DNA from: Myxococcota bacterium
Lineage (GTDB): Bacteria; Myxococcota_A; UBA796; CAJQPC01
Direction of reading: 5' to 3'
NCBI GenBank assembly: GCA_036012755.1
Contig: DASCPX010000091.1
Coordinates: 1 to 64,000, forward strand
DNA: 64,000 nucleotides
Under the pieces are notes generated by a model. It saw only the letters and a program-made list of their open reading frames with translations, made no database searches and was not told the DNA's origin. Every line of letters starts with the position of its first letter. The first letter of the stretch is position 1. Shown here one piece after another: positions 6,663 through 63,720 of this stretch. Both the position numbers and the translations under genes were made by a program.

Positions 6663-8641
6663 ATGTCGGTGCTCCTCGTCCTGCTCGCTTGCGATCCGGA
6701 CCCCTACAGCTCGGACACCGCGGCCATCGCCTTCGCCGACGAGGACGCGGACGGCTTCGGGGATCTGGACAGCGGCGTGGTCACCTGCACTCGCCCCGAG
6801 AACGAGGCCCTCTATGTCCCGCGGGGCGAGGACTGCGACGACAACGGCTGTCCGGTCGAACACTGCGGGACCATCTCTTCGGACGAGACCTGGTCGGCGA
6901 GCGCCTCCCACACGGTCACTTGCGAGCTCTACGTCCAGGGGAGCGGCAGCCCGGTCCTGACCATCGAGGACGGGGTCACCGTCGAGATCGAGGCCGGCTA
7001 CGGCATCCGCATCGGCAACGGCAGCGCCGGTGCGCTCCACGCCGACGGCTCGACCTCTGGCATCGTCTTCACCTCGGCCGAGTCCTCGCCCGCGGCAGGG
7101 GACTGGGACGGGCTCTACCTGGGTGACGCCCTGGTCGACGCGGACTCCGCGATCACCGGGATCACCGTGGAGTACGGCGGCTACGACGGCTACGGCGGGA
7201 TTCGCATCGGGAACAACAGCATCGAGATCTCCGACTCGGACATCCACGACAACGAGGCCTCCGGCATCTACATCAGCTCCAACGTGACCCCCGTGATCAC
7301 TGGCAGCACCATCGAGGACAACACAGAGGACGGCCTCTACGTGCTGGGCAGTCTAGGAGGCGACAGCGAGTTCACCTCGAACACGGTCACCGGCAACGGC
7401 GGCTACGCGCTGAAGATCTGCCCGAACAAGGTCTACAACCTCGACAGCTCGAGCAGCTACTCCGGAAACACCGAGGGCGGGATCTACGTCTGGGGCGGGA
7501 ACATGAGCGCGAGCGTGACCTGGCAGGCCCTCGACGACAGCTACTACGTCAGCGACTACGTCGACGTGCAGGACGGCTCCACCAACACCACCGGGACCGG
7601 CTCCCCCCACCTGACGATCGAAGACGGCGTGGAGATCCTCTTCGCCGAGAACGCCAGTTCCGCGTCGGGCCCTATGACAGCGTCTACACCTACGGCTCCA
7701 TCGACATCGACGGCAGCTCCACCGGGGTCACCTTCACCTCTGCGGAGTCTTCACCGGCAGCCGGGGACTGGAAGGGGCTCTACTTCGGCCAGGGCCACCG
7801 CAGCGGCAACTCCCAGGTCACCGGCCTGACCATCGAGTATGCAGGCGCAAACGGCAAGGGCTGCGTCTACCTCTACAACGCCAACACGGTGTACTTCGAC
7901 GAGATCACGGTCCAGGACTGCGACAACCACGGGCTCTACGCCAACGACGACAGCTACCCCTCCATCGAGGACAGCACCTTCCAGGACAACGCCGACAACG
8001 GCATCTACGTCTATGCCCTCTCCGACGCGGGCACGCCGAGCTTCACCGGCAACACCCTGACCAACAACGGCGACTACCCCATCCGGCTGGAGGCCGGCAC
8101 GATCTCCGAGCTCTCGGACGACTCCACCTACACCGGCAACGGCACGGACTACGTAGTCGTCGACGGCGGCGAGCTCGACAGCAGCGCCGAGACCTTCCGC
8201 GCGCTGGACGTCGACTACCTCGTGCAGGGCGACGTCACGCTCAGCGGCACCGTCGACATCGAGTCGGGGGTCACGCTCTACATCGACAACGGCGTGCGCT
8301 GGAACCTCGAGGGCACGCTGACGGTGTCCGGCACCAGCTCCGACGAGGTGCTGTTCACGAGCGCCCAGAGCACCCCGGCGGCGGGGGACTGGGAGGGCCT
8401 CCGGACCCAGACCAGCAGCGCCGTGCTGTCCATGGAATACGCCACCGTGGAGTACGGTGGGGCCTCCATGAATGGGACCATCTACTGCTACCGGGCCAGC
8501 AGCATCACGCTTGACAACGTCGCCGTGGACTACAGCGACAGCTACGGGCTCTACTACTACTCGAGCTTGTGTTCGAGCTCCAAGTGGACGCTCAGCTCGA
8601 TGAGCTACACGGGCAACACCTACGGCGAGAAGAACTGGTGA
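6663..8641 (+). pseudogene. right-handed parallel beta-helix surface lipoprotein with MopE-type metal-binding repeat, split by a 1-nt frameshift near 7655 (real lesion or sequencing error)
   Basis: Lipobox LLAC at C10; DEDADGFGD..CT...DCDD repeat; the FTSA(E/Q)SxPAAGDWxGL module occurs three times, the second copy only in the shifted frame that runs into ORF 7889..8641. Confidence 0.8.
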
Positions 8642-9711
8642 TCCTCGCCCTGCTCGGGTGCACGGGGGGGGACGCGAACCGCTACCAGAGCTACCTGCTG
8701 AACGAGGGCGGCGGCTACCGCCTCGGGCCGCGCGAGATCCGCTCCCTGGCCGACCCGGAGCGCATGCGGGGAGCCCTCGGCGATGCCTACGCGGGCGGGG
8801 TGCTGCGCATCGACTTCAACACCTACGAGATCTCCTACGAGGAGGGACGTGAGCTGCAGGTGCAGTACGTCGTCGACGGCGGCGTCGCCAAGCCCCTGGA
8901 CCGCGACGGTCTCATCCTCTTCAGCTTCTACGGCCACATGCAGGACGCCAGGGACACCCTCGGCGACGCCGGAGTCGACATCAACGAGATCTTCCCTGTG
9001 TCCATCGGCGTCACGCCGGCCCTGCCACAGCTCGGTCTCGCGCTCATGCCCGTCGAGAACGCCGCCTACGCTCCCTCCGCCAACGCCTTCATCCTGCTCG
9101 ACGACCTGGAGGATCGAGAGGTCCCCCTGGCAGCCAACGCCGGGGTGGTCACCCACGAGCTCGGACACGGCGTGTTCCACCTGCTGTCCGCTGGCGACCC
9201 CTACGCACCGAAGGCCTTCGACGTGCTCGGCGGAGCGACCCACGGGGTGTCCTCTCTCGACGAGGGCTTCGCCGACATGCTCGCCGGCCTGATCACCGGG
9301 GATCCGGCCTTCATCTCCGCTTCCCTGGCCATGCCAGAGCGGGATCTCTCGGGCGACCAGACCTCGGTCGAGGTCCCCGACGCCGGGGTGCCGCTGCCCG
9401 AGAACAGCGAGGACGTCACCTTCTACGACCCCTACCCCCTGGGCTCGGTCTTCGCGGCCGTGACCTGGGACATCTACGAGGCCACCGGTGACCGCGACGG
9501 GACCCTCGTCCTCATCGCCGCGACGGTCGAGGAGTGGGCCGCCAGAGAGGTGGATGCCCAGGACGGCCTCACGCCAGAGGAGCAGCGCCTCACGGCCTAC
9601 CGGTGGCTGGGTGTGCTCGTGGAGCTGGGCGACGCCCAGCAGTCCGCCGCTGCTTGCGAGAGCATCGGGTGGCGCTTCGCAGATCACCTCGAGGTGGAGG
9701 CCTGCCAGTGA
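8638..9711 (+). CDS. zinc metallopeptidase lipoprotein (thermolysin M4/M36-like gluzincin)
   Basis: ENAAY, HELGH (HExxH) and downstream LDEGFAD third-ligand motif; GTG start overlaps the upstream TGA; MILALLGC lipobox. Confidence 0.75.
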   Translation: MILALLGCTGGDANRYQSYLLNEGGGYRLGPREIRSLADPERMRGALGDAYAGGVLRIDFNTYEISYEEGRELQVQYVVDGGVAKPLDRDGLILFSFYGHMQDARDTLGDAGVDINEIFPVSIGVTPALPQLGLALMPVENAAYAPSANAFILLDDLEDREVPLAANAGVVTHELGHGVFHLLSAGDPYAPKAFDVLGGATHGVSSLDEGFADMLAGLITGDPAFISASLAMPERDLSGDQTSVEVPDAGVPLPENSEDVTFYDPYPLGSVFAAVTWDIYEATGDRDGTLVLIAATVEEWAAREVDAQDGLTPEEQRLTAYRWLGVLVELGDAQQSAAACESIGWRFADHLEVEACQ

Positions 9712-10190
9712 TGATGTGGCTCGTCAGCGTGGCGCTGGCCGATGACAGCATGCTGTGGCGCTCCGACCTCGGCGCGAGCCTCGGACTGGTCGCGGTGAGA
9801 TCCTCGACCGGCAACCACCGCGTCGACCCGGCCCTCGGGCTCTGGGCGCGCAAGGGCTTCGGGTCTGGCTTCGCCGAGCTCGAGCTCGGCATGGCGACGA
9901 ACGCGGACCTCGTCCCGGGTGGCAAGCTGCGCCGGAACCTCTACCGGAGCGCCGTGCTCGTCGGGTGGCGGGGTGGGAGCCGGCCGATGCACGTGAGCCT
10001 CGCCGGCGGAGTCGCGGGCTCGACGATCATCGGAAACGGCGTGATGGCCTTCCAGCCTGGTGTGCGCCTCCGCGGTGACCTGCGCGTGCCGGTGGGCAAG
10101 CGCTCCGTGTTCGTCTGGCAGTCGGGCATGACGACCCGGGGCAGGGGAGCGGACGTCGATGTCGGCATCGGGTGGGGGCTGCGTTGGTGA
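9708..10190 (+). CDS. putative small outer-membrane beta-barrel protein
   Basis: Short signal ending ALA; alternating amphipathic strands; C-terminal GIGWGLRW resembles a beta-signal; GTGA overlap. Confidence 0.55.
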   Translation: MMMWLVSVALADDSMLWRSDLGASLGLVAVRSSTGNHRVDPALGLWARKGFGSGFAELELGMATNADLVPGGKLRRNLYRSAVLVGWRGGSRPMHVSLAGGVAGSTIIGNGVMAFQPGVRLRGDLRVPVGKRSVFVWQSGMTTRGRGADVDVGIGWGLRW

Positions 10191-10780
10191 TCGCGCTGTT
10201 GGCCTGCACGACGCTGCACACGGTGGACGGCGCGAGGACGCTGGAGCCCGGCCAGGTACAGGTAGGTGCGGTGGGCTCGGTCCAGGGGCGCCAGAACGCG
10301 GCCTCGGTCGCTACCGGCATCCCCATCGCCCAAGGGGAGCTGGCCTTCCGGGTGGGGCTGGTCGAGGACGTCGACATCGGCACGCGCGTCTACATCGGCG
10401 GGCTGTACGCCGACCTGCGCTACCGCTTCGCCCAGCGGGGCCGCTGGCACTTCGCCGTGGCCCCGGGCATGGGCGGCATGATGCTGCCCATCCCAGCCCT
10501 GCCCGCTGGAGTCCTGGACTTCCGGGTGCCGGTGCGGGCCACTCGCGAGCTCGGCGACATCTGGGATCTGTCGGCCGGCGTGACCCCGATGGGTCGACGC
10601 CAGCTGGGTGCCTTCGACACCTACCTGGGCACCAACGGACGCATCGAGCTGCGCTTGCCGCACTTCTACCTGGGGGCGGGCTTCGACTGGTACATGCAGC
10701 CCGCCTACGGCTACAAGCCCGCCTGGGTGATCGGCATGGACCTCGGCTTCCGGGGCCGCTCCTCCGCCGAGCGCAGGTAG
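10187..10780 (+). CDS. putative lipoprotein/outer-membrane beta-barrel protein
   Basis: MIALLAC lipobox, ARTLEPG motif, amphipathic strands (ADLRYRF, IGMDLGF); GTGA overlap. Confidence 0.6.
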   Translation: MIALLACTTLHTVDGARTLEPGQVQVGAVGSVQGRQNAASVATGIPIAQGELAFRVGLVEDVDIGTRVYIGGLYADLRYRFAQRGRWHFAVAPGMGGMMLPIPALPAGVLDFRVPVRATRELGDIWDLSAGVTPMGRRQLGAFDTYLGTNGRIELRLPHFYLGAGFDWYMQPAYGYKPAWVIGMDLGFRGRSSAERR

Positions 10781-10841: not shown

Positions 10842-12743
10842 CTACCAGTAGTAGTACTCGCTGGCGCAGGGATCCGTGCCGCTGAAGGCGACGAAGCCGA
10901 GGGGCTCTGCGTCCTCGACGTCGACCACCGTGATGCCGGCGTTGCTGATGGCGTAGGCGGCGTCCTCGATGACCACGCTGCGGCGGAAGCTCGAGCAGTA
11001 CTCGTCGACGTCGCCCCCGTCGTAGAGGACCTCGTCCTGGTCGACACCGGCGATCTCCACCAGCTCCTCGCCCACGGCGGCGTGGATCAGCAGCATCTCG
11101 CTGTCGTAGCCCCAGCCGGCGGGCAGCAGCAGGCGGCTCTCCGGTGCGTACCAGTTGAAGGCGTGGTGGTCGCTCTGGGACTCGGACCAGTCAGCCGAGA
11201 GCTGCAGGCGGGACGAGAGCTGCGGATCGGCGAGGTCGTTCACGTCGAACATCGAGACCTGGAGGTTCTCGGCCCAGCCCTCGTCCGTGGCCTCCATGCC
11301 GACGGCGAGCAGGTAGCCGTCGCCCATCGGGTGGATGTAGTTGGAGAAGCCGGTGATCTCGAGCTCGCCGACCGCCTCTGGGGCCGCGTGGTCGGACAGG
11401 TCGAAGGTGAAGAGCGGGTCGATCTGCTCGAAGGTGACGACGTAGCCGACCTCCTCCTCGAAGCGGACCGCGAAGATCTGCTCGCCCTCGGCCAGGCCCT
11501 CGACCTCGCCCACGATCTCGAGGTCGCTGTTGGACTGCTCCTCGAGCACGTAGAGCCCTGCGCTGGTGTCCCAGCCTTCCGGATCCGCTGCGGTCGTCGC
11601 GATGCGCAGGTGGCCGTCCCATTCGTCCATGGCGAACTGGTTCAGGACCCAACCGGGGACCTCGCCGGAGGCCTGGTAGGAGGGCTCCTCGGGGCCGCCG
11701 CTGATGTCGAAGCGGTGGATGATGGTCTCGATGGTGGAGTCGAAGGACTGCCAGGGACCATCCGCCGCCTCGCTGCCGACGACATAGAGCGACTCGGCGT
11801 TTGCGTAGATGGCGTCGAGCGAGCCGAGCACCGAGGTGCCGACGAAGTCGCTGTCGGGGTCTTCGATGTCGAGGCTCTCGACGTTGACCATGTAGTTGCC
11901 GCTCTCGCGGTTGCTCCCGTAGACGTTCGAGCACCGGCTGACGTCCTCGTCCACAGAGGCCCACGCCTCGCCGGTGCGGAGGTTGTCGAAGCGGCCAGGC
12001 AGCCAGTCGTCCAGCGTGCTCACCTCGACCGCCTTCAGGGCGTCCTTCTTGTTCTCGTACCACTCGGTTCGGTTGATGCCGAGGTCGCTGTAGCTGACGA
12101 CGTAGAGGCGGCCGTCGACGAGGCGGGAGTCGTAGTTCGTGCCCTGGGTGTAGACCTCGCGCTGGACGGTGGGGACGTTCGGGTCGGAGACGTCGACGAT
12201 GGTGGTCTTCACGGTCGGACCGTTGCCGGCGTTGCGAGTGCTCGTGCCGCCGGACATCGGATCCGGGGTCTCCCAGCCGAGCTGCGAGACGACGACGAGG
12301 AGGTCACCGGTGAGGAACATGCCGTCGGCGATCCCCTCGATGCCCACCCGACCGATCTGGTCGATGTCCTCTGCCGGCCAGGCCTTCGTGATCACCAGCG
12401 AGTCACCCGCGAGCACGTAGATGTGGGTGCCGTCCGTCTCGATGAGGTCGGCCTCGTCGACGCCGGAGACCTGCGTGTTCGTGTCGCTGTAGCTGCGGTT
12501 GGCGCTGCCTCCTCCGTCCATGTCATCGACCTCGGCGGCCATGGAGGCGCTGTCCTGGGCCGAGACGTCGTACTTCGTGCCGAAGCCCCAGCCACCGCCG
12601 CCCCAGGAGTAGGCCCAGCGGATCTCCTCTTCGGCCTGTCCCTTCACCGCCTTCTCGAGGGCGTCGCAGTCCTTGAACGCTGAGAGTGAGTAGCCGGGGT
12701 CTCTGACGTTGCAGCCAGTGGCGATGAGCACGGAGAGGATCAT
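10842..12743 (-). CDS. secreted beta-propeller domain lipoprotein (Beta_propel family)
   Basis: YSDTNTQVSGVDEADLIETDG, LNQFAMDE, EQIFAVRF, YVVTFEQIDPLF, GELEITGFSNYIHP, DHHAF; AGGAG RBS; MILSVLIATGC. Confidence 0.88.
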   Translation of the reverse strand: MILSVLIATGCNVRDPGYSLSAFKDCDALEKAVKGQAEEEIRWAYSWGGGGWGFGTKYDVSAQDSASMAAEVDDMDGGGSANRSYSDTNTQVSGVDEADLIETDGTHIYVLAGDSLVITKAWPAEDIDQIGRVGIEGIADGMFLTGDLLVVVSQLGWETPDPMSGGTSTRNAGNGPTVKTTIVDVSDPNVPTVQREVYTQGTNYDSRLVDGRLYVVSYSDLGINRTEWYENKKDALKAVEVSTLDDWLPGRFDNLRTGEAWASVDEDVSRCSNVYGSNRESGNYMVNVESLDIEDPDSDFVGTSVLGSLDAIYANAESLYVVGSEAADGPWQSFDSTIETIIHRFDISGGPEEPSYQASGEVPGWVLNQFAMDEWDGHLRIATTAADPEGWDTSAGLYVLEEQSNSDLEIVGEVEGLAEGEQIFAVRFEEEVGYVVTFEQIDPLFTFDLSDHAAPEAVGELEITGFSNYIHPMGDGYLLAVGMEATDEGWAENLQVSMFDVNDLADPQLSSRLQLSADWSESQSDHHAFNWYAPESRLLLPAGWGYDSEMLLIHAAVGEELVEIAGVDQDEVLYDGGDVDEYCSSFRRSVVIEDAAYAISNAGITVVDVEDAEPLGFVAFSGTDPCASEYYYW

Positions 12744-12863: not shown

Positions 12864-13544
12864 TCACTCCTGGTACTCGCCGGGCTCCATGGAGCCGATG
12901 TCCTCTTCGAGGGCGACCTCGACGGTGTCACCGAGGACGGGGAGGTTCACGCGGTCCCCGATCGCGAGCCGGTCGAGGTCCTTGTCCCGGTTGAACTCGG
13001 ACAGCACCCACATCGGGATCTCTGCGATCTCGTCGGCCAGCTGGGAGGCCGTGTCGCCGGTGCGCACGCGGTGCTCGTCGACGCCGACCAGCCCGCCTCG
13101 GCGGGACATGTAGCGCTCGAGCTTGGCGTCGACGAAGGCCTGGCGCTCGGCCGTGTACTGGATGCTCTCCTCCTCGCCGCCGGGGAGCGCGATGCTCTGT
13201 CCGGCGAAGATCGGATCCGAGGGATCCATGTCGTCGTTGACTGCGAGGAGCTCCTCGACGGTCACGTCGCCCCAGTCTGCGATGAGCACCAGGTTCTCGC
13301 CGGAGCGGACGGCGACCGAGTAGGTGTCGACGGCTTCGGGCGCGATGGCCTCGATTGACTCCTCGAGCTCCACATCGGTGTCGAGCACCAGCTCGAGGTC
13401 GATGGCGGCCAGCTCCTCGACCGGCGGCGACTCGGTGGTCTCGACGAGCTCGAGGGCCTCTGAGGTCGGGGCGGTCTCCATGACCTCTGCGGTCTCGGAG
13501 TCGGTGCCGCAGGCGAACAGGGCGGAAAGGGCGATGACGATCAT
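12864..13544 (-). CDS. LysM peptidoglycan-binding lipoprotein (two LysM domains)
   Basis: VRSGENL..IA...VTVEELLAVN...IFAGQSIALP and HRVRTGDT...N.....LAIGDRVNLP; LFAC lipobox. Confidence 0.85.
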   Translation of the reverse strand: MIVIALSALFACGTDSETAEVMETAPTSEALELVETTESPPVEELAAIDLELVLDTDVELEESIEAIAPEAVDTYSVAVRSGENLVLIADWGDVTVEELLAVNDDMDPSDPIFAGQSIALPGGEEESIQYTAERQAFVDAKLERYMSRRGGLVGVDEHRVRTGDTASQLADEIAEIPMWVLSEFNRDKDLDRLAIGDRVNLPVLGDTVEVALEEDIGSMEPGEYQE

Positions 13545-15366: not shown

Positions 15367-15892
15367 GCGTCTTGCTCGAGTCGATGGGCGTGCCGTCGAT
15401 GGTGCCCTCGACCTCGAAGGCGAGGCTGTTGCTCGTGATCTCGCCGGTGACCGTGTAGTCCACGAGGCCGGTGCCGGTGGCATCGCCGGTGGCCTCGATC
15501 TCGCCGTAGACCGTGTAGACCAGGCTGCCGCCGGTGTGGTCACCCTCCAGATCGAGGGTCCACTCGAGCCCGCCGTTGAGGGTGATGCCCTCGTCGACCA
15601 CCTCGATGTACTCCAGGCTCCACTGTCCGCTCCAGGTCGTGTCCGTCCAGCTGGCCGAGCCGGCGAGATCGACCTGGCCCGTCCACTCCGTGGTGCCGAC
15701 GACGCTGCCCTCGAAGGCGAAGCCGTCTTCCTCGGAGGTCCAGGTGAAGGTCCCGGAGTCCCGGGCCGTCGCGGTCTCCGAGTCCGCGTAGGTGGTGGTG
15801 TAGGCGTCGAAGCCCACGCGGTTGGCGCGCTCGAAGACCATGTTGGCCTCCTGCGGGCTCATGCCGGAACAAGCGACGACAAACAGGAACAT
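15353..15892 (-). CDS. hypothetical all-beta lipoprotein
   Basis: MFLFVVAC; GAGGAG upstream; Thr/Gly/acid-rich beta strands. Confidence 0.7.
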   Translation of the reverse strand: MFLFVVACSGMSPQEANMVFERANRVGFDAYTTTYADSETATARDSGTFTWTSEEDGFAFEGSVVGTTEWTGQVDLAGSASWTDTTWSGQWSLEYIEVVDEGITLNGGLEWTLDLEGDHTGGSLVYTVYGEIEATGDATGTGLVDYTVTGEITSNSLAFEVEGTIDGTPIDSSKTLTLF

Positions 15893-21634: not shown

Positions 21635-22800
21635 TGCTTCTTCTTGCTCTTCTTCTTCTTGACCTTCGAGACGGACGTCGCGCCCCGGACGACCAGCGCG
21701 TCCCCCACGCCCTCCGCCTGGTCCATGCTGGCCTCGATGAGCAGTCCGCCGGCGATCTCCATGGACTGGTCGACCGGGAAGGCCTGGGTCGCGGCGTCCT
21801 CGATGGAGTTCAAGATGGCGCCCTGGAGCACGAGCGCCAGCGGATCGACGACGCCAGCCATCGGCGAGCTGGCGACCTGTTCGACGTCCTCTGCGACGAG
21901 CTTCAGGCGTCCGCCCTCGAGGGTGAGCGCGCCGGTGACGACGTAGTCCCGCCACCAGGGCCGGCGGTCCGTCAGGCGCCACAGGCGCAAGCCCAGCTCG
22001 AAGCGGTCTCCGTCTACATCCAGCGAGGTCGGCTCCGCGTGCACGTCGAGCTGGATCTCGCCCTTCTCGAAGGCCCCCTTCCTGGCGAAGTCCAGCAGGG
22101 TCTCCTCCGAGATGACGACCTCTATGCCCTCCGCGGGCATCGCCCCGAGCTCGACCAGCGGCTCCCCGTGGGCGGCCTCGGTGAGGAACTCGGCGCGCAC
22201 ACCTCCATCGACCTGGACCAGCTTCAGCCCCCGGAGCGGGAGGTCTCCCCCGCCGAGGTTGCCCAGGACGATCGGCGGGATCTTCGACACGAGGTCCTCG
22301 CCCCACTCCTCGAGCGCTGGGGTGGCGTCCAGGGCCAGTTCGTCCCCGAGACGCACCCTGGCCTTGGTCACCTTGGCGACGCGGAACTCGACGCGCTCGG
22401 CGTCTCCTTCGGCGATCGAGCGCAGCCGCAGGGTCGCCTCGAGCTTCAGCGACAAGGGGACCTCGGTCTCGATCGGGCCGACATCGATCGCGGCGTTGCC
22501 CCTGAGCTTGCCCCTGACACCGAAGCAGTCGTCGCAGTCCCGCTCGATGATCTCGAGCTGCTTCACGGTCAAGGCCGGCGTGACGGTGCCGATCCCGACG
22601 TCGATGGGCTCGACCTCGGAGAAGGCAGCGTCCAGGCTCCCGCCCAGCAGGTCCGACACGAGCGAACCGGAGATGTGGAGGGCGCCGTCGGGCCTCCACT
22701 GCTCGCTCGGGGGGTTGGCGTCTTCGAGAGCGTAGGTGCGGCTGGCGTCGTAGAGCTCGTGGATCTTCGCTGCGCAGCCGATCAGGACCAGGACCAGCAT
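21631..22800 (-). CDS. hypothetical lipoprotein, possibly TULIP/BPI-like fold, with Lys-rich tail
   Basis: MLVLVLIGC; two long beta-rich halves; ends KVKKKKSKKKQ. Confidence 0.6.
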   Translation of the reverse strand: MLVLVLIGCAAKIHELYDASRTYALEDANPPSEQWRPDGALHISGSLVSDLLGGSLDAAFSEVEPIDVGIGTVTPALTVKQLEIIERDCDDCFGVRGKLRGNAAIDVGPIETEVPLSLKLEATLRLRSIAEGDAERVEFRVAKVTKARVRLGDELALDATPALEEWGEDLVSKIPPIVLGNLGGGDLPLRGLKLVQVDGGVRAEFLTEAAHGEPLVELGAMPAEGIEVVISEETLLDFARKGAFEKGEIQLDVHAEPTSLDVDGDRFELGLRLWRLTDRRPWWRDYVVTGALTLEGGRLKLVAEDVEQVASSPMAGVVDPLALVLQGAILNSIEDAATQAFPVDQSMEIAGGLLIEASMDQAEGVGDALVVRGATSVSKVKKKKSKKKQ

Positions 22801-22861
22801 GGCGTGGAGCCTAGCCCTCACGCCGTCTCGGCGCCAGTTAGCCTCTCGTTGGAGGAATCAC

Positions 22862-50290: not shown

Positions 50291-53200
50291 ATGGGGGCCT
50301 TGCTCACCACACTGCTCGCGCTGACTGGCTGCATCGTGGACGCGCCTCCGCCGTGGGTCGGAGAGTGCGCCGAGCACCCCGAGGGGATCTACGACTACGG
50401 CGAGATCGGCATCGGCAGCTGCCTGGCCGGACCGGTGTCGCTGTCCTGGACCTCGGACGGCTCGCACCTCCTCGTCACCAACGCGAATCCCTTCCTCGAC
50501 TTCACCGGCGGGAGCGTCAGCGCCATCGACGTCGAGGCCGCGCTCGCGGGGGCCGCGGACCAGGACGACGCCCGGGTCCTCGTCAGCGACGTGAGCCCGA
50601 GCGCTCTGGACATGCCCAGCTTCCCTTCCTACGGGGAGCTCGTCGCTGTGCGCGACCTGCTGCTGGTCCCGAACCGCCTCACAGAGAGCGCAAGGACCCG
50701 TGTCGGCTACGACGATCTCTACTTCGTCGATGTCTCCGATCCGGCCGAGCTCGCGTTCGCGGAGGTCGTCGAGGGCGGAGCCCACCACCTCGAGCTGAAG
50801 GACGACCCGGCGCTGGTCGCCTACGACACGACCAGCGGGTACGCCTTCGTGGCGAACCTCACGACCCACAGCCTCTCGGTGGTGGACGTGCTCGCGGACC
50901 CGGTCGAGATCATCGACGCCGTCGACACGGCGAGGGTCTCACGGCCGCGCTTCTTCGACTCGGACGGCAGCGGCTCCCATGTCGAGGCCGCCCAGCCAGA
51001 GGTCCTCATCGCGGAGGCAGTCTTCGACCAGGAGTGGACGCTGTCCTACGCAGAGGGCAGCTACCGCGTCTGGAGTCCTCGAGCAGAGGGCGCCGTGCGG
51101 CTCACCAGCATCGGCGACGAGGACTGGTCCGAGTCTGCCCGGGGCGCCGAGATCGACGTCGATGAGCTCGGCCTCGTAGAGGTCTCGGACCCCCAGCCCT
51201 ACGAGTCAGATGCTGACGCGGGCATGCTCACGATGACCTTCGTCGACGACGGCCGCATCCTCGCCGCCGACGCAGCCATCATCTCCGGCGAGTGGGACCT
51301 CCGGAGCTCGGCCTTGCTCAGCGAGAGAGAAGGCGACTGGGACGAGATCCTCGGCGGACCGATGGCGCTGGTCGAGGACGAGCGCCACTATCTCTTCTAC
51401 GACGGCACCTCTGCGGAGGGCGTGCAGTCCATCGGGCTCGCCTCCGGGACCGACGGGACCGTCTTCAGGCGGGACAACTCCGGGACACCCGTCCTGAGCC
51501 TGGACGGTGTCCAGCTCGCGGACCCGCACGTGCTCTACGACCGGCAGGCCGACATCTACCGCATGTTCTTCAGCATGGACGACGGCTCTGGCTGGGTCAT
51601 CGGACACGCTGAGTCCACCGATCTGTCGGCTTGGACCATCGACGAGGACGCGGTCTTCGTGCCGGAGGCGGGGGAGGCAGCCGCGCCGGTCGTGACCTAC
51701 GGCAACTTCGAGTTCCGCATGTGGACATCGCGGCTCGGCGACGACGGCATCTGGCGCCTCGGCGCAGCCCGCAGCGTCGACGGCCTGAGCTGGACGGACC
51801 TCGGGGTCGTCTCGGAGCTCGACGCCGCGGAGCCCGCCGACGGGACTCCGCCAGGGGTCGGACTCCAGTCCCAGATCCTGCGCAGCTTCATCCTCAGCGG
51901 CGACGAGTACGGCACGACCCAGCTCGCGGTCCATGGCGGCGACATCCTGAACGCTTCGGGCTTCGGCTTCCTGCTTCAGCTCAGCGCCGGGGCCATCCTG
52001 GGCACGCAGCACGTGGCCGGAGTCGGCGACAACGGCGTCACGGCCGAGAGCTGGTTGGTCGACGAAGGCCTCGTCTACCTCACCCTCACGGACGCCGACG
52101 GCACCACCTCCGTTGGGGTCATCGGCTGGGACGGGGGCCCCGTCGGCGAGCCCTCCGTCCTCATCACCCCCGAGTCGGGGCCCTTCGATGGCTCGGTGAG
52201 CCACCCTGTCGTCTTCCCCTCCGCCGCCGGCTACACGATGCTCTTCGCGGGCCAGATCGACGGCCGGACCGCCATTGGGTCGGCGACCTCGACGGACGGC
52301 CTCGACTTCACGGTCGGCGATGCGCTCGTCCTCGACAACGTAGAGGACTGGGAGTCGCTGCTCGTCGCCCCCGGCAGCGTGACCGTCGAGGACGATGGCA
52401 GCTTCTCGCTCTACTACACGGGCTCCGACGGGAGCCGGTCTCGCATCGGCCACGCCACCTCCTCGGATGGACAGACCTGGACACGCGCGGCGGGACCGAG
52501 CGAGGACTGGCTCATCTCGACCGGCGCCCCCGGCTCCTTCGACGACTCGGCGGTGCGCCATCCCTTCGCGCTCGAGATCGACGGCGTCCAGCACATCTGG
52601 TACGCCGGCTTCGACGGCGACTTCTGGCGTATCGGTCACGTCTCTCGAGAGGCCGACAGCGGAGACGACTTCGAGCCCACGGAGGGCCTGGACGGAGACG
52701 CCCGCCCGGTCATCGACGGTATCGCCGGCAACTTCGACGCCATCGACGCCTACCGGCCGGTGGTGAGCTGGGACGGCAGCACGCTGGAGATGCTCTATAC
52801 CGGTCGCGACGGTGGCATCGAGCGCGTCGGGCGCGCTTCCGGGACTCGTCCGGACCGGCTCTACCGAGACCCGGCTCGCCCGACCCTCGGTGACTTCGCA
52901 CAGTTCACCACGATGGCGGGTGACGACCAGGGTGACGGCGACATCTCGCTGGTGCGAGAGGTGGAGGGCCAGCTCGCGGAGGGGCTGGCGGCGAGCTTCC
53001 TCCACATCGACGACGCGCGGGGCTTCCTCTACGTCGCGAGCAAGCTGCACAACTACATCTACATCATCGACATCCGAGACGACTCCACCGAGATGTGGGT
53101 CGACGCGAACTACCTCGACATCGAGGCGCTCCTGGTCGCCAACACGGACGTCGGCGCGCGCTCCTTCCGCGGGCTCCTCGCGCCCGAGGGCGAGCGCTGG

Positions 53201-53659
53201 CTCTACGCGCTGAACACCCAGCCGGAGAGCATCATGCTCTTCGACCTCGACGAGGTCGAGGACGACGACCGGGCGACCCTCTTTCCGGACGCTGTCGCTG
53301 GTTACATCCCCGCTCCCCGTGCCATCGAGCGCGACGCGGGCCTAGAGTCCATGACCGCGCTGGGGCCTGCCCAGCTCGTCATGCTGGGCGACCGGATGCT
53401 GGTGTCGAACTTCAACGCCAACAGCGTGGGTGTCTACGACCTCCGCCTGGGGCTCTTCGGCGAACTCGTCGACGAGGTCGACCTGCTCGGCGAGAACCCC
53501 CACGCGCTCGCCTTGTCCCCGGACGGCACGATGCTGGCGGTCGGGAACTACGTAGGCGAGATCATCGACGGTCGGGTCAGCTCCACGGTCGTCATCCTCG
53601 ACGTCGACGAGACCAGCCCGACCTACCTCGAGGTCCTCGCTCGGGTGGCGAACCAATGA
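50291..53659 (+). CDS. large lipoprotein: YVTN-like beta-propeller with two inserted GH43/GH32-like five-bladed propellers
   Basis: LTGC lipobox; repeated IG.A.S.DG..W Asp-box-like motifs and DPHV/HPVV/RPVV blades; terminal AFVANL, LYVAS and ENPHALALSPDG. Confidence 0.7.
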   Translation: MGALLTTLLALTGCIVDAPPPWVGECAEHPEGIYDYGEIGIGSCLAGPVSLSWTSDGSHLLVTNANPFLDFTGGSVSAIDVEAALAGAADQDDARVLVSDVSPSALDMPSFPSYGELVAVRDLLLVPNRLTESARTRVGYDDLYFVDVSDPAELAFAEVVEGGAHHLELKDDPALVAYDTTSGYAFVANLTTHSLSVVDVLADPVEIIDAVDTARVSRPRFFDSDGSGSHVEAAQPEVLIAEAVFDQEWTLSYAEGSYRVWSPRAEGAVRLTSIGDEDWSESARGAEIDVDELGLVEVSDPQPYESDADAGMLTMTFVDDGRILAADAAIISGEWDLRSSALLSEREGDWDEILGGPMALVEDERHYLFYDGTSAEGVQSIGLASGTDGTVFRRDNSGTPVLSLDGVQLADPHVLYDRQADIYRMFFSMDDGSGWVIGHAESTDLSAWTIDEDAVFVPEAGEAAAPVVTYGNFEFRMWTSRLGDDGIWRLGAARSVDGLSWTDLGVVSELDAAEPADGTPPGVGLQSQILRSFILSGDEYGTTQLAVHGGDILNASGFGFLLQLSAGAILGTQHVAGVGDNGVTAESWLVDEGLVYLTLTDADGTTSVGVIGWDGGPVGEPSVLITPESGPFDGSVSHPVVFPSAAGYTMLFAGQIDGRTAIGSATSTDGLDFTVGDALVLDNVEDWESLLVAPGSVTVEDDGSFSLYYTGSDGSRSRIGHATSSDGQTWTRAAGPSEDWLISTGAPGSFDDSAVRHPFALEIDGVQHIWYAGFDGDFWRIGHVSREADSGDDFEPTEGLDGDARPVIDGIAGNFDAIDAYRPVVSWDGSTLEMLYTGRDGGIERVGRASGTRPDRLYRDPARPTLGDFAQFTTMAGDDQGDGDISLVREVEGQLAEGLAASFLHIDDARGFLYVASKLHNYIYIIDIRDDSTEMWVDANYLDIEALLVANTDVGARSFRGLLAPEGERWLYALNTQPESIMLFDLDEVEDDDRATLFPDAVAGYIPAPRAIERDAGLESMTALGPAQLVMLGDRMLVSNFNANSVGVYDLRLGLFGELVDEVDLLGENPHALALSPDGTMLAVGNYVGEIIDGRVSSTVVILDVDETSPTYLEVLARVANQ

Positions 53660-55500
53660 GCCTTCTGCTGCTCGCCGCCTGCCTCAACGAGACGACCTTC
53701 ATCGAGGGTCACTTCGACGGCCCGACCTCTGTGGCGGTGCTGCACGCCGAGACGGGCGGCCCCTTCTACGAGCCCGTTGCCTTCGTCTCCAACAGCCGCT
53801 CCGGCCTCATCGTGCCCCTGGACGTCAAGCACGGCTGGCTCCTGGCCGACGACCGCGCCTCGCCCTTCCTGGAGGCTCAGCCAATACCGACCGGCGCCGA
53901 CCGCATCCTCGGGGAGATCGCCGTGTTCGCTCCGGACACGGAGCACATCTCGCTCTTCGTCGCCGACAACAAGACCGCCACCTTGCTGACGGTCGACTAC
54001 ATCCAGGGGATCGGTGGCGACGGTGCCTTCATCCACTCCCGACCGCGCCTGGTCGGCGAGGTGGACTTCGTCGACGCCGACGGCAGCGGCGATGCTGCGA
54101 CCCTCGACGGCCTGGAGCTCCGGAGCGGGTATGCGACCACCGAGGACTGGGTCCTTCAGTTCGACGGCACCTCGTGGGAAGTCACCGGCAGCCGCTCGGG
54201 GGACCAGGCCTTCGACGCTCGCACCCTCGAGCCCTACAGCACCGACGACGGCGCCCTCCACTTCCTGATCTCCGGGGCAGCGACCAAGGGAGACCGCTTC
54301 GAATTCTCGGTGGACAGCGGGGTAGGGGAGATCGACCTCGCCGGTGTGGTCGGGGGCCTCTACATGTCCCCCGTCCAGGACTGGCTCTACGCGGCGGTGA
54401 CCTCGCTCGAGGACGGCACGGGGCGCGTCGCGGTCATCGACCCGACCACAGGGCTCGAAAGAGGCAGCCTGGATCTGCCTGAGGATGCCAGGCCCCATCG
54501 CTTCAGCGGTGACCTCTCGGGCGACCTGATCTACGTCAGCGACGCCCGCAGCGGCGCGGTCTACGAGGTCATCGTCGACCCGATCGACCCCACCAGCTCC
54601 GCTGTGCGCACCCTGGAGATGCCCGGGCCGGTGATCGACGTCGCCTACCAGGCGGACGAACACTACGAGCACCTCTTCGTCGCGCTCGCCGGCGACACCC
54701 AGCTCCACCTCTACGATCTCGTCGCGGACGCCTGGAAGGACATCAACACGGCGACGCCAGAGGTCGACGCCATCGAGCTCCAGACCCCCATCACCGGCCT
54801 CGCGACCGGCCTCGATCGCATCCTGCTCCAGCAGTTCGGTCCCAACGGCACCCGGGCATCCGATCGCGTCGTCGTGGCCAGCACCTTCGAGGGCGTCCTG
54901 ACCACCATAGAGGCCGGCACTGGCTGCCTGATGGTGGACGAGAGCGGTCCCTTCGCCACCATGGACACGGACCTGCCATTCGACGACGAGGGCGAGACCA
55001 GCACCCCTTCTCTCGAGGCCAGCGGAGCGACTGGCCGCGCTGTGCAGGTCAACTCGTGCGGCGGTATCGCCAGGACCCAGACCTGGGTCCTGACCTACGA
55101 CGGCTCCCTGGGCGCCTGGGTGGCCGAGGGGGCTCGCAGCGGCGTGCAGGACAACCTCGTCTACGAGGACGAGCGGTACGTGAGCGACAGCGGGGAGATC
55201 TCGCTCCTGGTGCGCTCCGGCACCCTGCCTTCGACCAGCGGGGACCGCTTCATGTTCCACGTCGACAGCGGCGTCGCAGAGGTCGACGGCGACATCAGCG
55301 GTGACGGCGTCGTCGCCGGAGACGAGCCGCGCCTCGAGATCCCGACCCGACCAGTGCCCTTCAGCTACCTCGCGGGTCCCGACGCGGAGTCATGGGGAGA
55401 GGTCAACCGCAAGGTCGGCGTGCTCTGGCCCCAGCAGAACGCGGACATGGTGCTTCGGGTCAACCTCGAGGCCAACAAGATCGAGGTCATCTGGGACTGA
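53656..55500 (+). CDS. beta-propeller lipoprotein with a duplicated beta-sandwich insert
   Basis: MSLLLLAAC, ATGA overlap; AFVSNS and IYVSD blades; two copies of W.L.(F/Y)DG..W...G.RSG.Q...GDRF.F.VDSG. Confidence 0.75.
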   Translation: MSLLLLAACLNETTFIEGHFDGPTSVAVLHAETGGPFYEPVAFVSNSRSGLIVPLDVKHGWLLADDRASPFLEAQPIPTGADRILGEIAVFAPDTEHISLFVADNKTATLLTVDYIQGIGGDGAFIHSRPRLVGEVDFVDADGSGDAATLDGLELRSGYATTEDWVLQFDGTSWEVTGSRSGDQAFDARTLEPYSTDDGALHFLISGAATKGDRFEFSVDSGVGEIDLAGVVGGLYMSPVQDWLYAAVTSLEDGTGRVAVIDPTTGLERGSLDLPEDARPHRFSGDLSGDLIYVSDARSGAVYEVIVDPIDPTSSAVRTLEMPGPVIDVAYQADEHYEHLFVALAGDTQLHLYDLVADAWKDINTATPEVDAIELQTPITGLATGLDRILLQQFGPNGTRASDRVVVASTFEGVLTTIEAGTGCLMVDESGPFATMDTDLPFDDEGETSTPSLEASGATGRAVQVNSCGGIARTQTWVLTYDGSLGAWVAEGARSGVQDNLVYEDERYVSDSGEISLLVRSGTLPSTSGDRFMFHVDSGVAEVDGDISGDGVVAGDEPRLEIPTRPVPFSYLAGPDAESWGEVNRKVGVLWPQQNADMVLRVNLEANKIEVIWD

Positions 55501-56636
55501 TCTCCCTGCTCGCGGCCACGCCCCCGCCCATCGTCGGCGGCAGCGAAGTGCCCGAAAGTCGCTGGCCCTCCGCGGCCTCGATCCACTACGACGACCTGCC
55601 TGGTTGCAGCGGGGTGCTGGTGCATCCAGAGCTGGTCCTGACCGCTGGCCACTGTGCCTCCGAGACCCTGGACGCCGTCGCACTCGGCGGGGTGGACCTC
55701 GATGATCCGGCGGGCTTCGAGTGGCTGGACGTCGAGGAGGTCCACACCCACGACGACCACTGGAACACGAACGATGTCAGTGTGTTGGTGCTATCCGAGC
55801 CTGCCACGACGTCGCCGGCGAGGCTCGCGTTGGGGTGCGCCGCGGCCTTCGTCGTCGACGGCGCGGCGGCCAGGATCGTGGGCTTCGGCAACACCGAGAC
55901 CGACGGTGGCGGGGCGACCTCCCTGCTCCACGAGGCCGACGTCGAGATCGTCGCGGCCGACTGCCAGGACGCCTCGCGCGGCTGCAACGTCGGCTTCAAC
56001 GACCTCATCGCCGGGGGCGAGGGTGTCGACACCTGCGTCGGTGACTCGGGGGGACCGCTCTTTCTCTGGGGGCCCAATGGGCAGCCCTACCTCGCGGCGA
56101 CGACCTCTCGGGCCGCGCTCCCTTCGACCCGCACCTGCGGAGACGGCGGCATCTACGTCCGCGTCGATGGACTCGCCGAGTGGATCGAGGAGGTCTCGGG
56201 GCTGAGTCTCGAGACCCCCGACTGCGGAGAGTTCGAGAACACACCGCCTCAGCCAGCGCCTCTGCGGATGTCGTTGCGGGTCGGTGAGACAGCGACCGAG
56301 TTGCTCAGCGCAGAGGACCCCGACCCGGGCCAGGTCATCACATGGTCCCTGGCCGCCCCGGCGACCCTGGGCACGGCCACCCTGGAGGAGGCGACCCTGA
56401 CCTACGAAGCCCGTGAGGAGGGAGAGGAGTCCTTGCTGATCGAGGTCGACGACGGCATCGACGCGGTGGACCTCGAGGTCCCCGTGAGCGTGTCGGCGGC
56501 ACCTCCGGATCCCGTCGTGGATCCCGAGCCCCGCAATGGGTGCGCCCACGCTCCCGGAGGCCGCTTCTGGGTGGTGCTGCTCGGCGGCGCCTGGTTGGTC
56601 GGCCGGGGCTCGGCCAGCGATAGAGCTAGAGCCTGA
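55497..56636 (+). CDS. trypsin-like S1 serine protease with Ig-like domain and MYXO-CTERM-like tail
   Basis: IVGG mature N-terminus, LTAGHC, ND, GDSGGP; C-terminal NGCAHAPGGRFWVVLLGGAWLVGR; start uncertain, probably CTG at 55497 or 55491. Confidence 0.85.
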   Translation: MISLLAATPPPIVGGSEVPESRWPSAASIHYDDLPGCSGVLVHPELVLTAGHCASETLDAVALGGVDLDDPAGFEWLDVEEVHTHDDHWNTNDVSVLVLSEPATTSPARLALGCAAAFVVDGAAARIVGFGNTETDGGGATSLLHEADVEIVAADCQDASRGCNVGFNDLIAGGEGVDTCVGDSGGPLFLWGPNGQPYLAATTSRAALPSTRTCGDGGIYVRVDGLAEWIEEVSGLSLETPDCGEFENTPPQPAPLRMSLRVGETATELLSAEDPDPGQVITWSLAAPATLGTATLEEATLTYEAREEGEESLLIEVDDGIDAVDLEVPVSVSAAPPDPVVDPEPRNGCAHAPGGRFWVVLLGGAWLVGRGSASDRARA

Positions 56637-61090: not shown

Positions 61091-61140
61091 TTGACCATCT
61101 GCTACGGCGCTTGCTATCTCCTCATACCAAGGAGTGGGCG

Positions 61141-61746: not shown

Positions 61747-61795
61747 CTGCTCGGGAGCTCCGCCTCGACCACGCGATGCCGCGGAGGACCTGAGG

Positions 61796-62104
61796 TTACG
61801 CGCTGCGCACGATGTCGCCGGTGACGTCCTTGCCGCCGGAGAGGTTCGAGAACAGCACCATGACGCTGTAGATGGGGCCCCAGGGAAAGCCCCACCAGCC
61901 GAAGAGCATCGTGATGATGCTGTAGGGGAGCCCCTTCACGAAGGCGCTCTCCCCAGGGCGGATGAAGAAGACGTCCGAGCTGCGCTTGAAGGACATGATG
62001 ACGACGCTGATGGCGTACTCGAAGTAGACGAACTTCCCGCCCTGCTGGACCAGGGCGTGGATCTCCTGGTCGGAGAGTCCCTCGATGCCCTTGATGTCGG
62101 CCAT
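61796..62104 (-). CDS. conserved hypothetical small membrane protein
   Basis: GAGGAGG RBS; GGKFVYFEYAIS...FGWWGFPWGPI...GGKDVT; strong codon bias. Confidence 0.8.
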   Translation of the reverse strand: MADIKGIEGLSDQEIHALVQQGGKFVYFEYAISVVIMSFKRSSDVFFIRPGESAFVKGLPYSIITMLFGWWGFPWGPIYSVMVLFSNLSGGKDVTGDIVRSA

Positions 62105-62149
62105 GGCTACCTCCTCGGTGCAAAGACGACGTGGCACCGGAGGCCGATC

Positions 62150-62947
62150 CTACAGCGCCAGATCGAGGAAGGCGCGCCAGGCATCCGGGTCATCCAGCAG
62201 GTCGTCGTTGTGCCCGACCCCTTCGACGAGTTGGAAGCTGGCGTCCGGCAGCACCTCGGCCAGCTGGCGGCCGTGGTGGGATCCGATCATCGCGTCCTGG
62301 GAGCCATGCAGCACCAGGACCGGAGAGCGCACGAGAGCGGCGCGCTCGTCAGAGCGCCAGGTGTTCCTCATCACCCAGCGCACGGGCAGGAAGGGGTAGG
62401 CCTCAGCGCCAACTGCGACGGCGCTGAGGAAGGTGCTCTCCAACACCACGGCGCGAGGCCGGACCTCCGAGGCAAGGGCAACCGCGACGCCGCCGCCGAG
62501 GGACTTGCCGAGCACGATGATGTCCTCGCTCGCGTGGCTTCGGGTTGCCAGGCTCCACGCAGCCTTCGCATCGAGGACGAGTCCGTCCTCCGAGGGCGAG
62601 CCCTCGCTGCCCGGGTAGCCGCGGTAGTTCACGTGCAGCACGGACAGGCCGGCCTCGTCGAAGCGGCGGTAGCGATCGAGCCAGGCCCCCACCGTCCCCC
62701 CGTTGCCGGAGAAGCAGAGCACGAGCCGCTCGTGGTCCCCAAGGCGCCAGCCGTAGAGCATGACTCCGTCCTCGGCGGTCACGCGGACCTCCTCCGCCCC
62801 CACCTTCGTGGCGAGCTCGGTCAGGCGCGACACCTCCACCTGCGGGCGAGGGTAGACGAGCGCGGTCTCGAACATCGACATCAGCACGACGAGGGCTCCG
62901 TAGCCGAGGAGCGCCGCGGCGGCGATGCGGGTGAGGCGGCGCCTCAG
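62150..62947 (-). CDS. alpha/beta hydrolase (ABHD13/17, Bem46-like) with N-terminal TM
   Basis: GNGG, YRGYPGSEGSPSEDGL..D, GKSLGG, HGSQD, GHND; start CTG 62947 or GTG 62971. Confidence 0.88.
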   Translation of the reverse strand: MRRRLTRIAAAALLGYGALVVLMSMFETALVYPRPQVEVSRLTELATKVGAEEVRVTAEDGVMLYGWRLGDHERLVLCFSGNGGTVGAWLDRYRRFDEAGLSVLHVNYRGYPGSEGSPSEDGLVLDAKAAWSLATRSHASEDIIVLGKSLGGGVAVALASEVRPRAVVLESTFLSAVAVGAEAYPFLPVRWVMRNTWRSDERAALVRSPVLVLHGSQDAMIGSHHGRQLAEVLPDASFQLVEGVGHNDDLLDDPDAWRAFLDLAL

Positions 62948-63720
62948 TGGTCCGGGTTGGGCTCGGCCCACTCGATGTCAGAGGAAAACGCCGCGCCGAG
63001 GCAGATGTCGTCGACGATCGTGAAGAAGCCCTGAGCCTCGACCTTGGTGTGCTGGTAGAGCCGCAGCCGCACCTCTTGACCCAGCCAGGGCTGGACGTCG
63101 GTGACCTGCCACACGAGCTCCCCCTCGGTCGGTTCGCCGTAGCCGATGTCGGGGAAGCCGGCGATGGGCACGTGTTCGCTCGAGAGCGCGGGCACGTAGC
63201 CTCCGGTGACAGCGAGGTCATCGAGGCTGGCGAGCACGGCTCCCCCAACCAACAGGTCGGCGTAGAAGTCGATGCCCTCTGCGCCGACCTCGGAGAGCTG
63301 GTACCACCAGAGGTGATCGTCCTCGATGACGAAGGGCTCTGTGGTGGCGATGGCGACGCTGTCGACATCTCCGGCGTGCGAGGACCGCATCACGAGCGCT
63401 CGGCTCTCGCGGACGTCGATGAGCTCTTCGCCGACCAGCCCGGAGAAGTCGGTGCCCTCTCGCACGTTCCAGAGCAGGGCGCCGTCCGCCAGCTGGACCT
63501 CCTGGCCGTCGTAGCCGGCACCCTCGAGGGTCCCGTCCTCCCAGTCGAGGCACCAGGAGGTCGTCGGCACGAAGTCCCCAGTGTCGACCGGACCGGTGTC
63601 GCCGGTGTCACCGCTGTCGTCGTCAGAGTCCGCGCTGTCGCCGGAGTCCACCACCACCCCCGAGTCCACCGGCAACACCTGTTGGTCGGTGCGACACGCG
63701 AGGAGCAGGAGGAAGGTCAC
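62944..63720 (-). CDS. hypothetical lipoprotein with D/T/G-rich linker and jelly-roll-like domain
   Basis: MTFLLLLAC; DSGDTGDTG linker; WLGQEVRLRLYQ...FTIVDDIC. Confidence 0.7.
   Translation of the reverse strand: MTFLLLLACRTDQQVLPVDSGVVVDSGDSADSDDDSGDTGDTGPVDTGDFVPTTSWCLDWEDGTLEGAGYDGQEVQLADGALLWNVREGTDFSGLVGEELIDVRESRALVMRSSHAGDVDSVAIATTEPFVIEDDHLWWYQLSEVGAEGIDFYADLLVGGAVLASLDDLAVTGGYVPALSSEHVPIAGFPDIGYGEPTEGELVWQVTDVQPWLGQEVRLRLYQHTKVEAQGFFTIVDDICLGAAFSSDIEWAEPNPDH

Follow-up and report, generated by a model that had tools for sequence, protein, structure and literature searches.

Probable export signals of about six to ten uncharged residues on hundreds of predicted lipoproteins in a Myxococcota genome

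Leaders encoded in the window

The 64,000 nucleotides analysed here (positions 1 to 64,000 of contig DASCPX010000091.1, from the Myxococcota bacterium assembly GCA_036012755.1; hereafter, the window) encode a set of proteins whose N-terminal leaders are hydrophobic, uncharged and end, after only a few residues, in a lipobox-like sequence or a signal peptidase I (SPase I)-type site. A canonical lipoprotein signal, of the type of Escherichia coli Lpp, consists of n-, h- and c-regions, with a basic n-region and a lipobox of the form [LV][ASTVI][GAS]C (PMC8048626), and E. coli signals of all kinds have a median length of 22 residues and a minimum of 15–16 (PMC5963308). An initial annotation had listed 13 lipoprotein N-termini lacking Lys and Arg, and all 13 are present in the window, four of them with a GTG start (42020, 10187, 8638 and 63720). 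In the following list, the position of the cysteine is counted from the initiating residue, SD is a Shine–Dalgarno motif, and a start-bounded leader is one with no earlier in-frame ATG, GTG or TTG.

1867..1893, + strand: possible short SPase I-type leader with a GTG start; an earlier GTG lies 9 codons upstream and an ATG at 1651
6663..6692, + strand: uncharged lipoprotein-type leader with Cys10, on a 388-amino-acid (aa) beta-helix protein (Pfam Beta_helix); start-bounded
8638..8661, + strand: uncharged leader with a GTG start and Cys8, on a 357-aa protein without a Pfam family; GTGA overlap with the upstream stop
9708..9740, + strand: short uncharged SPase I-type leader of 11 aa, ending in ALA; GTGA overlap, with earlier in-frame starts present
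10172..10207, + strand: uncharged leader with Cys7 from the GTG at 10187 or Cys12 from the GTG at 10172; 10187 overlaps the upstream stop
12711..12743, − strand: uncharged leader with Cys11, on a predicted beta-propeller lipoprotein (Pfam PF09826); upstream SD, Cys kept in homologues
13509..13544, − strand: uncharged leader with Cys12, on a LysM protein (Pfam LysM); start-bounded
15869..15892, − strand: uncharged leader with Cys8; in-frame stop 11 codons upstream, GAGGAG SD
22774..22821, − strand: two possible leaders, uncharged with Cys9 from the ATG at 22800 or basic with Cys16 from the GTG at 22821
38421..38453, + strand: uncharged leader with Cys11, on a PilW/Tgl-like, pilotin-like TPR protein encoded downstream of rlmN; start-bounded, GAGGAG SD
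42020..42037, + strand: shortest leader of the window, with a GTG start and Cys6; start-bounded
42697..42717, + strand: uncharged leader with Cys7; start-bounded, ATGA overlap, GAGG SD
50291..50332, + strand: uncharged leader with Cys14, on a 1122-aa protein; start-bounded, in-frame stop 16 codons upstream
53656..53682, + strand: uncharged leader with Cys9, on a 614-aa protein; ATGA overlap, earlier in-frame start deep within the upstream gene
55497..55517, + strand: possible 7-aa leader of a trypsin-family protease (Pfam Trypsin), which needs a CTG start; CTGA overlap, upstream GAGG
63694..63720, − strand: uncharged leader with a GTG start and Cys9; in-frame stop 3 codons upstream

Exactly eight of the 13 lipoprotein-type leaders are start-bounded (those at 6663, 13544, 15892, 38421, 42020, 42697, 50291 and 63720), as had been proposed, and several starts are indeed pinned by NTGA overlaps (8638, 10187, 42697, 53656 and 9708). 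Overlaps of this kind are not enriched, occurring in 13.8% of bounded short-signal genes versus 15.5% of other bounded genes, so that they pin starts at an ordinary rate. The counts of the initial annotation also implied a fourteenth, charged lipoprotein, and a lipoprotein census found none in the window. Among its three clipped non-lipoprotein signals, that at 9708 is pinned by its GTGA overlap, the one at 1867 is not start-bounded and the one at 55497 would need a CTG start; the trypsin-family open reading frame (ORF), at 55497–56636 (+), has another in-frame ATG at 55392, and the mature start IVGG lies 11 codons after the CTG.

Alternative starts differ in what they imply for individual leaders. 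For the leader at 8638, other GTGs would place the Cys at position 26 or 31; for that at 10187, the additional GTG 5 codons upstream leaves the leader uncharged either way. The GTG 7 codons upstream of 22800 gives a basic, near-canonical leader, and there is a clear SD at neither of the two starts.

Most leader proteins of the window have no Pfam family, the exceptions being the beta-helix, beta-propeller, LysM and TPR proteins and a weak lactonase match. The best NCBIfam matches of the product at 38421, covering most of the protein, are TIGR02521 PilW (100 bits, with a cut-off of 154) and NF033762 Tgl (89.6 bits, with a cut-off of 225), and it matches the PilF structure with E=1.5e-11; it thus appears pilotin-like, with membership of PilW, PilF or Tgl falling short of the curated model cut-offs. 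Two beta-helix ORFs, 6663–7829 and 7889–8641 (+), are adjacent, and the second matches the profile from position 82 at its own residue 3, as could be the case for a truncated paralogue or for a fragment from the end of a longer, broken gene.

A census of lipoprotein leaders in the genome

The window belongs to a genome of 6.73 Mb (G000; 68% GC, 250 contigs, 96% complete), for which a purpose-made codon-model gene caller gave 5765 genes. The MYXO-CTERM family, which is missing in 14 control genomes, has 21 matches here, in keeping with an affinity to the Myxococcota. There were 839 lipobox candidates, 750 of which start, uncharged, 5–13 codons before the Cys. Because this set had been filtered for hydrophobicity, we repeated the count on the 2562 start-bounded genes with no filter for hydrophobicity or charge. 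The first Cys preceded by Ala, Gly or Ser then lies at position 4 in 2 genes, at 5 in 4, at 6 in 8, at 7 in 60, at 8 in 135, at 9 in 83, at 10 in 62, at 11 in 34, at 12 in 23 and at 13 in 8. Positions 7–10 thus account for 340 genes, as compared with 8 at Cys6, and this drop points to a functional minimum of Met and five further residues ahead of the Cys.

Ala, Gly or Ser precedes the Cys in 340 of the 410 start-bounded genes whose first Cys is at 7–10. Lys or Arg occurs before the Cys in only 10 of these 340, versus 45% of other genes with Lys or Arg within residues 2–6; the remaining 330 leaders therefore lack both the basic n-region of a Sec/signal peptidase II (SPase II) signal and the twin-arginine motif of the Tat pathway. 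With the Cys most often at 7–10, they also lack the length, about 15 residues or more with a membrane-spanning h-region, of the canonical class. Since they depart from it in both n-region and length, we place the leaders outside that class. The proposal that these signals are truly this short and uncharged is borne out by the same counts.

Mean hydrophobicity in the hydrophobicity-filtered set is 3.0 at Cys7 and falls to 2.0 at Cys12, and a rise in hydrophobicity as the leader shortens is expected of a recognition threshold. The leader ends in a lipobox-like L-L-A/G/S-C, with Leu at −3 in 523 candidates, mostly Leu at −2, and Ala, Gly or Ser at −1 by virtue of the filter. A search of the genome for ATG-h-x-h-h-Ala-Cys gives 64 matches, and one for the reversed pattern gives none. 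The candidates fall into 550 sequence clusters, including 481 singletons, indicating that the trait does not belong to one gene family and ruling out the expansion of a single family as its source. A further transmembrane segment is present in merely 0.8% of the 363 start-bounded short candidates, and the first 30 mature residues have a median net charge of −5.

Canonical basic lipoprotein leaders are a minority class of 51–61, and the two classes of signal coexist in the one genome: 13 of 51 canonical lipoproteins have a paralogue of the same family among the short candidates, which is start-bounded in 6 cases. The use of codons typical of ribosomal proteins is stronger in canonical (n=51) than in short (n=347) lipoproteins (Mann–Whitney p=5e-7), and 22% of the former versus 7% of the latter lie above the 90th codon-bias percentile of the genome. 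As some of the candidates that are not start-bounded are probably canonical, we estimate that the genome encodes at least about 360 short lipoprotein leaders, and probably 600–700. Hundreds of proteins that are probably exported and lipid-anchored begin with a signal of only about 6–10 hydrophobic residues without charge, less than half as long as is usual in bacteria.

In overall composition, about 800 of the 5765 genes (14%) are lipoprotein-like, with a mature charge of −0.14 per residue versus −0.04 in other proteins, and with linkers rich in Asp, Thr and Gly.

Translation starts

A trivial explanation would be that the true starts lie upstream, reached through non-AUG initiation, a frameshift or read-through, and yield normal charged signals, or that the Cys motifs occur by chance. 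Individual cases are ambiguous in just this way (22800, 1867, 55497 and part of the 387 unbounded candidates). Nevertheless, there is no earlier in-frame ATG, GTG or TTG in 363 of the 750 short candidates, 221 of these 363 also lack CTG and ATH within 25 codons, and an in-frame stop lies within 10 codons upstream in 192 of the 750. By codon statistics, the DNA upstream of the short start resembles non-coding sequence (coding score −0.82) as compared with the mature region (+0.39). The SD motif peaks at −12 to −8 at the short starts, the same spacing as in the 2029 other bounded genes, and alternative upstream starts have it about a third as often. Additionally, in genome G002 the 9-residue leader of the Tgl-like gene is preceded, 3 codons upstream, by a stop, and independently called database homologues, whose starts are the predictions of other gene callers, begin at the same place. 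For the start-bounded set the artefact is largely refuted, and we regard it as highly improbable overall; judged from these signals in the DNA, the short translation starts are almost certainly real.

Leaders without a lipobox

The initial annotation extended the trait to proteins other than lipoproteins, and the genome agrees. A total of 274 bounded genes open with an uncharged hydrophobic run that has no lipobox, and the first charge peaks at residues 12–13 (101 of 274). The leader of BamA has 13 uncharged aa in G000 and 12 in G092, versus 21 residues, basic, in G003; likewise, in G000 the leaders of BamD (about 14 aa) and of a second LolA (12 aa) are short, uncharged and of SPase I type. 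In all three G000 proteins, small residues occupy −3 and −1 before an exported mature domain, as in SPase I substrates, and the basic n-region and the 20–30 or so residues of that class are missing.

In E. coli, BamD is a lipoprotein. We dropped it as a test lipoprotein because most members of the order that were read have no lipobox in it: among 30 loci (L093–L122, of which L103 is that of G000), for about a third of which the ORF picker took the wrong frame, the leader is mostly of SPase I type without a Cys, and a lipobox seems to remain in L101 and L121. LptE (PF04390), likewise dropped as a test lipoprotein, was not found in four of four genomes of the order (G000, G002, G003 and G092) and was found in one genome of another order, which may reflect divergence or loss. 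The leader of Pal in G000 is basic and has 17 residues. The Pal proteins of G000 and G002 (L428 and L429) have Thr at lipobox position −1 (A-A-T-C), outside the usual Gly, Ala or Ser.

Homologues and relatives

We examined whether the N-terminal Cys is conserved, and homologues of the PilW/Tgl-like, the beta-propeller and the Cys6 proteins keep it. In the six closest PilW/Tgl-like homologues the Cys lies at 8–11, and distant ones have leaders of up to 25 residues, mostly basic. Across 49 readable loci of this gene, 9 have an uncharged leader with the Cys at position 13 or earlier, and Arg is retained in several trait-rich genomes. Five genomes of family f2 have an orthologue without the lipobox Cys (L168, L170–L172 and L149), which seems to carry an SPase I-type leader. 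For the beta-propeller protein at 12743, the best 120 of 219 matches keep the Cys motif in leaders ranging from 11 to over 30 residues, basic and of 15–36 residues in distant homologues, uncharged and of 11–14 in most close ones. The Cys6 protein at 42020 has eight homologues (37–72% identity), all eight uncharged with the Cys at 7–10. When named genomes were scanned with the Tgl-like protein, the matches were unrelated TPR proteins. Taken together, the predicted leaders of homologues range from canonical to clipped signals.

To place the trait phylogenetically, we counted ATG-h-x-h-h-Ala-Cys across genomes. It occurs at least 20 times in 15 of the 110 genomes of the order, up to 72 times, as compared with at most 10 in each of 26 other genomes of the class and at most 16 in the 315 genomes that represent the phylum's other classes. 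Some genomes rich in lipoboxes have low counts, such as G005 with 9 of 503 motif matches. In a FastTree phylogeny of SecY, SecA and Ffh from 31 genomes, genus g1, G007 and family f7 carry the extreme form, and each of them has low-count neighbours. The extreme form is thus confined, as far as these sequences indicate, to one order and is patchy within it, which agrees with the proposal that the trait belongs to a lineage.

Stretches sampled from relatives (7–220 kb per group, small samples with heuristic start choice and with family f7 thinly covered) gave short uncharged leaders in 31 of 39 cases in G000, 9 of 14 in G005, 12 of 20 in G111 and 5 of 5 in G096. Other members of f7 had 5 of 10 and 2 of 6, G054 4 of 18, G031 4 of 19 and G003 2 of 9; a mixture from family f5 had 1 of 3, G116 1 of 1, family f2 0 of 14 and genomes outside the order 0 of 7. 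These counts indicate that the trait is graded across most of the order.

Export and lipidation machinery

The genes secY, ffh with ftsY, secA, lepB, def, lnt, lolA and yidC are all present and look intact. Lgt, LspA, Lnt and Lol are encoded, so that the SPase II pathway is represented (of the Lol system, the search covered LolA). LspA aligns to the solved LspA and retains the DF and FN.AD motifs, and there are three genes of the LepB family. Genes for the signal recognition particle (SRP) have not been lost, with ffh above the cut-off in 37 of 37 genomes, and neither have those for deformylase, of which there are two copies in five of five genomes. Retained N-formyl-Met had been considered in the initial annotation; with two deformylases present, any formyl retention would not be due to gene loss.

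The multiplicity of lipidation genes invites another explanation, namely that a factor dedicated to the short class, be it a paralogue of Lgt (of which there are five) or of LspA (two), YidC or a chaperone that has escaped recognition, operates beside the canonical pathway. The genome has an lspA-lspA-lgt-lgt operon (C59:99967-102645; L001 and L003) and three further lgt genes, its five Lgt paralogues differ at the residue before the Gly-Gly of the His-Gly-Gly motif (Tyr, His, Met, Thr or Asn), and it holds both classes of signal. Multiple lspA genes are not peculiar to it, four being described in Myxococcus xanthus (PMC8048626). However, lgt is present in 2–7 copies in all 33 genomes of the class searched, including 7 outside the order; LspA has one or two copies irrespective of the trait; and a 12-residue LspA insertion between DF and FN.AD (L454–L483) is found class-wide and is absent from nine sequences read from other classes. 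Since lineages free of the trait share both, neither Lgt and LspA duplication nor the insertion tracks the trait, and we rejected them as its cause. Furthermore, YidC is single-copy in five of five genomes, and SPase I substrates are shortened too, which a paralogue of Lgt or LspA does not explain. We consider a dedicated factor improbable.

A comparison of alignment columns between 5–7 trait-rich and 14–17 trait-poor genomes gave one weak column in SecA and none in Ffh or SecY (inspection of Ffh by eye covered the N-terminus). A difference does separate the order from its surroundings: the SecY position that corresponds to Ile187 of E. coli holds Ala or Ser in 26 of 26 members of the order, trait-poor ones included, and Ile in four of four members of other orders of the class and in E. 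coli. Among 26 unrelated genomes, reached through 30 loci from the named-genome scan with the Tgl-like protein, 22 were readable at this site, with Ile in 12, Val in 5, Met in 3, Ala in 1 (a cyanobacterium) and Thr in 1 (a Mycoplasma). The same transmembrane segment (TM5) of the order also has Phe192 changed to Thr, Ala or Ser, and the equivalents of I82, I86, I278 and I408 are retained.

Ile187 is, we presume, one of the six isoleucines of the SecY pore ring; a literature search for Ile187 or Ile191 as ring residues returned nothing. To our knowledge, an I187A or I187S substitution has never been assayed as a prl allele. The ring consists of six isoleucines, I408 being the one named, and prlA alleles, which admit defective signals, are located in the pore ring, plug and gate (PMC7530735, PMC3101351, PMC3164448). 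As the substitution is common to trait-poor members, it would be at most permissive, and we consider it somewhat less likely than not that it matters for short signals. A modified export or lipidation route had been suggested for this lineage; this is only partly supported, the SecY substitution being the one candidate for such a change.

Discussion

The account we favour, and consider fairly likely, is that the leaders are genuine minimal Sec/SPase II and Sec/SPase I signals, which a relaxed SecY gate tolerates and which arose mainly in proteins of weak expression. The basic n-region is gone and the h-region is reduced to a Leu-rich core overlapping the lipobox, down to the floor of Met and five residues. 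The mature region is strongly acidic and free of transmembrane segments, and would thus present no positive charge opposing export. The short peptide would engage the standard SecA or SRP/SecYEG route, where the order-wide change of Ile187 to Ala or Ser in TM5 of SecY, with that of Phe192 to Thr, Ala or Ser, might lower proofreading in the manner of prlA. After translocation, a stub lodged in the outer leaflet without spanning the membrane would offer L-A/G/S-C to ordinary Lgt, LspA and Lnt; SPase I stubs would offer AxA to LepB, and Lol would then sort the lipoproteins. Such a tolerant gate may have let the signals of weakly expressed accessory proteins shrink repeatedly to the floor, with abundant proteins such as Pal keeping canonical signals, a pattern in line with the observed correlation with codon bias. 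Within this account, it is very likely that the short-leader proteins are lipidated by Lgt and LspA, and we have comparably good confidence that they cross via SecYEG.

Several observations weigh against this account. The evidence on starts, export, lipidation and cleavage is entirely sequence-based, and part of the 387 unbounded candidates probably have canonical signals for which the wrong start was taken. Myxobacterial beta-lactamases predicted to be lipoproteins proved soluble on expression in E. coli (PMC13616975), indicating that a lipobox does not prove lipidation. Within the order, the SecY change does not follow the trait: family f2 has Ser187 and no short leader in its sample, and G003, G031 and G054 have the change and only about one short leader in five; the Ala of a cyanobacterium and the Thr of a Mycoplasma at this site add to the difficulty. 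Early mature charge is alike in short and canonical lipoproteins (p=0.33–0.45), so that acidity is a background property and extra mature acidity as a specific compensation is ruled out. Finally, codon bias, an indirect proxy for expression, does not correlate with how long the leader is among short-class members (rho 0.07, p=0.18).

It could also be that the stub is not a targeting signal at all. An acidic, slow-folding mature domain would then drive signal-independent export through a permissive SecY, and the stub, possibly formylated and chargeless, would be a membrane tag for Lgt and LspA or for LepB. Consistent with this, six residues are far under the E. coli minimum of 15–16 aa and there are indications that SecA takes part in the recognition of internal targeting signals (PMC5963308), and binding of SRP blocks deformylation of nascent signals (PMC5454389). 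The acidity of the mature regions fits as well. Methionine aminopeptidase leaves the initiator Met in place when residue 2 is Leu, Ile, Phe or Trp, as in 514 of the 750 candidates, which would thus keep it. On the other hand, the sharp length floor and the trade-off between hydrophobicity and length fit a recognition threshold, SPase I substrates keep a hydrophobic leader too, with the first charge peaking where it does, and the two deformylases are present. We regard export driven by the mature domain as unlikely and retain the reading of minimal Sec signals.

Such minimal signals resemble known systems in part. They share with canonical Sec/SPase II signals the L-L-A/G/S-C end, the Leu-rich core, a polar mature N-terminus, a conserved Cys and the presence of lgt, lspA, lnt and lolA, and differ in having no basic n-region and 6–10 residues before the Cys, too few for a helix spanning the bilayer. 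Those of SPase I type have, like canonical ones, a hydrophobic core ending in AxA directly before known mature domains such as the POTRA of BamA, but only about 10–14 uncharged residues, with a cleavage site that is predicted. As in E. coli prlA strains (e.g. prlA4, I408N/F286Y), a bulky isoleucine of the channel is replaced by a small residue and the signals would look defective in E. coli; unlike prlA, the change is natural, fixed, order-wide and at 187 rather than 408, and it also occurs in lineages poor in short signals and in a cyanobacterium.

In work by Hikita and Mizushima dating from 1992, loss of positive charge was reportedly compensable by a longer hydrophobic stretch; in the leaders described here, charge and length are lost together. 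A further related system is that of the myxobacterial B1 metallo-beta-lactamases, which have type II signals considerably shorter than that of NDM-1 and whose hosts have several Lsp copies; these, however, form one family of the Myxococcaceae, lack the −3 Leu and have alternative SPase I sites (PMC13616975). We found no statement there on missing n-regions or a proteome-wide trait. A literature search, with most subscription papers outside its reach, found no description of the trait.

Secretome predictors build in the tripartite signal with its basic n-region and 15-residue floor, which is regarded as nearly universal among bacteria, and at least about 360, probably 600–700, proteins of this one genome break that rule. 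This is a real, large and surprising departure from the textbook, for which we offer the mechanism as a proposal, and it suggests that the accepted minimum length of export signals does not hold for all bacteria. Envelope proteins and secreted ones may consequently be under-called in this uncultured order. The order also provides a resource, comprising hundreds of natural minimal signals, orthologous pairs of long and short leaders and one candidate SecY substitution, which opens to tests in E. coli the questions of the shortest functional signal, the role of the n-region and whether a prolipoprotein signal needs to span the membrane for Lgt and LspA. In its strongest form, which we consider doubtful, the proposal is that the order runs most of its envelope proteome, including the essential BamA, on a distinct minimal class of signal, an N-formylated, fully uncharged peptide of six to ten residues that at no point spans the membrane and owes its acceptance to a fixed, natural SecY of prl type. 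If true, this would set a new lower limit for Sec signals, with n-region and spanning helix dispensable in nature, and would be a natural case of one gate substitution permitting the repeated, proteome-wide erosion of signals.

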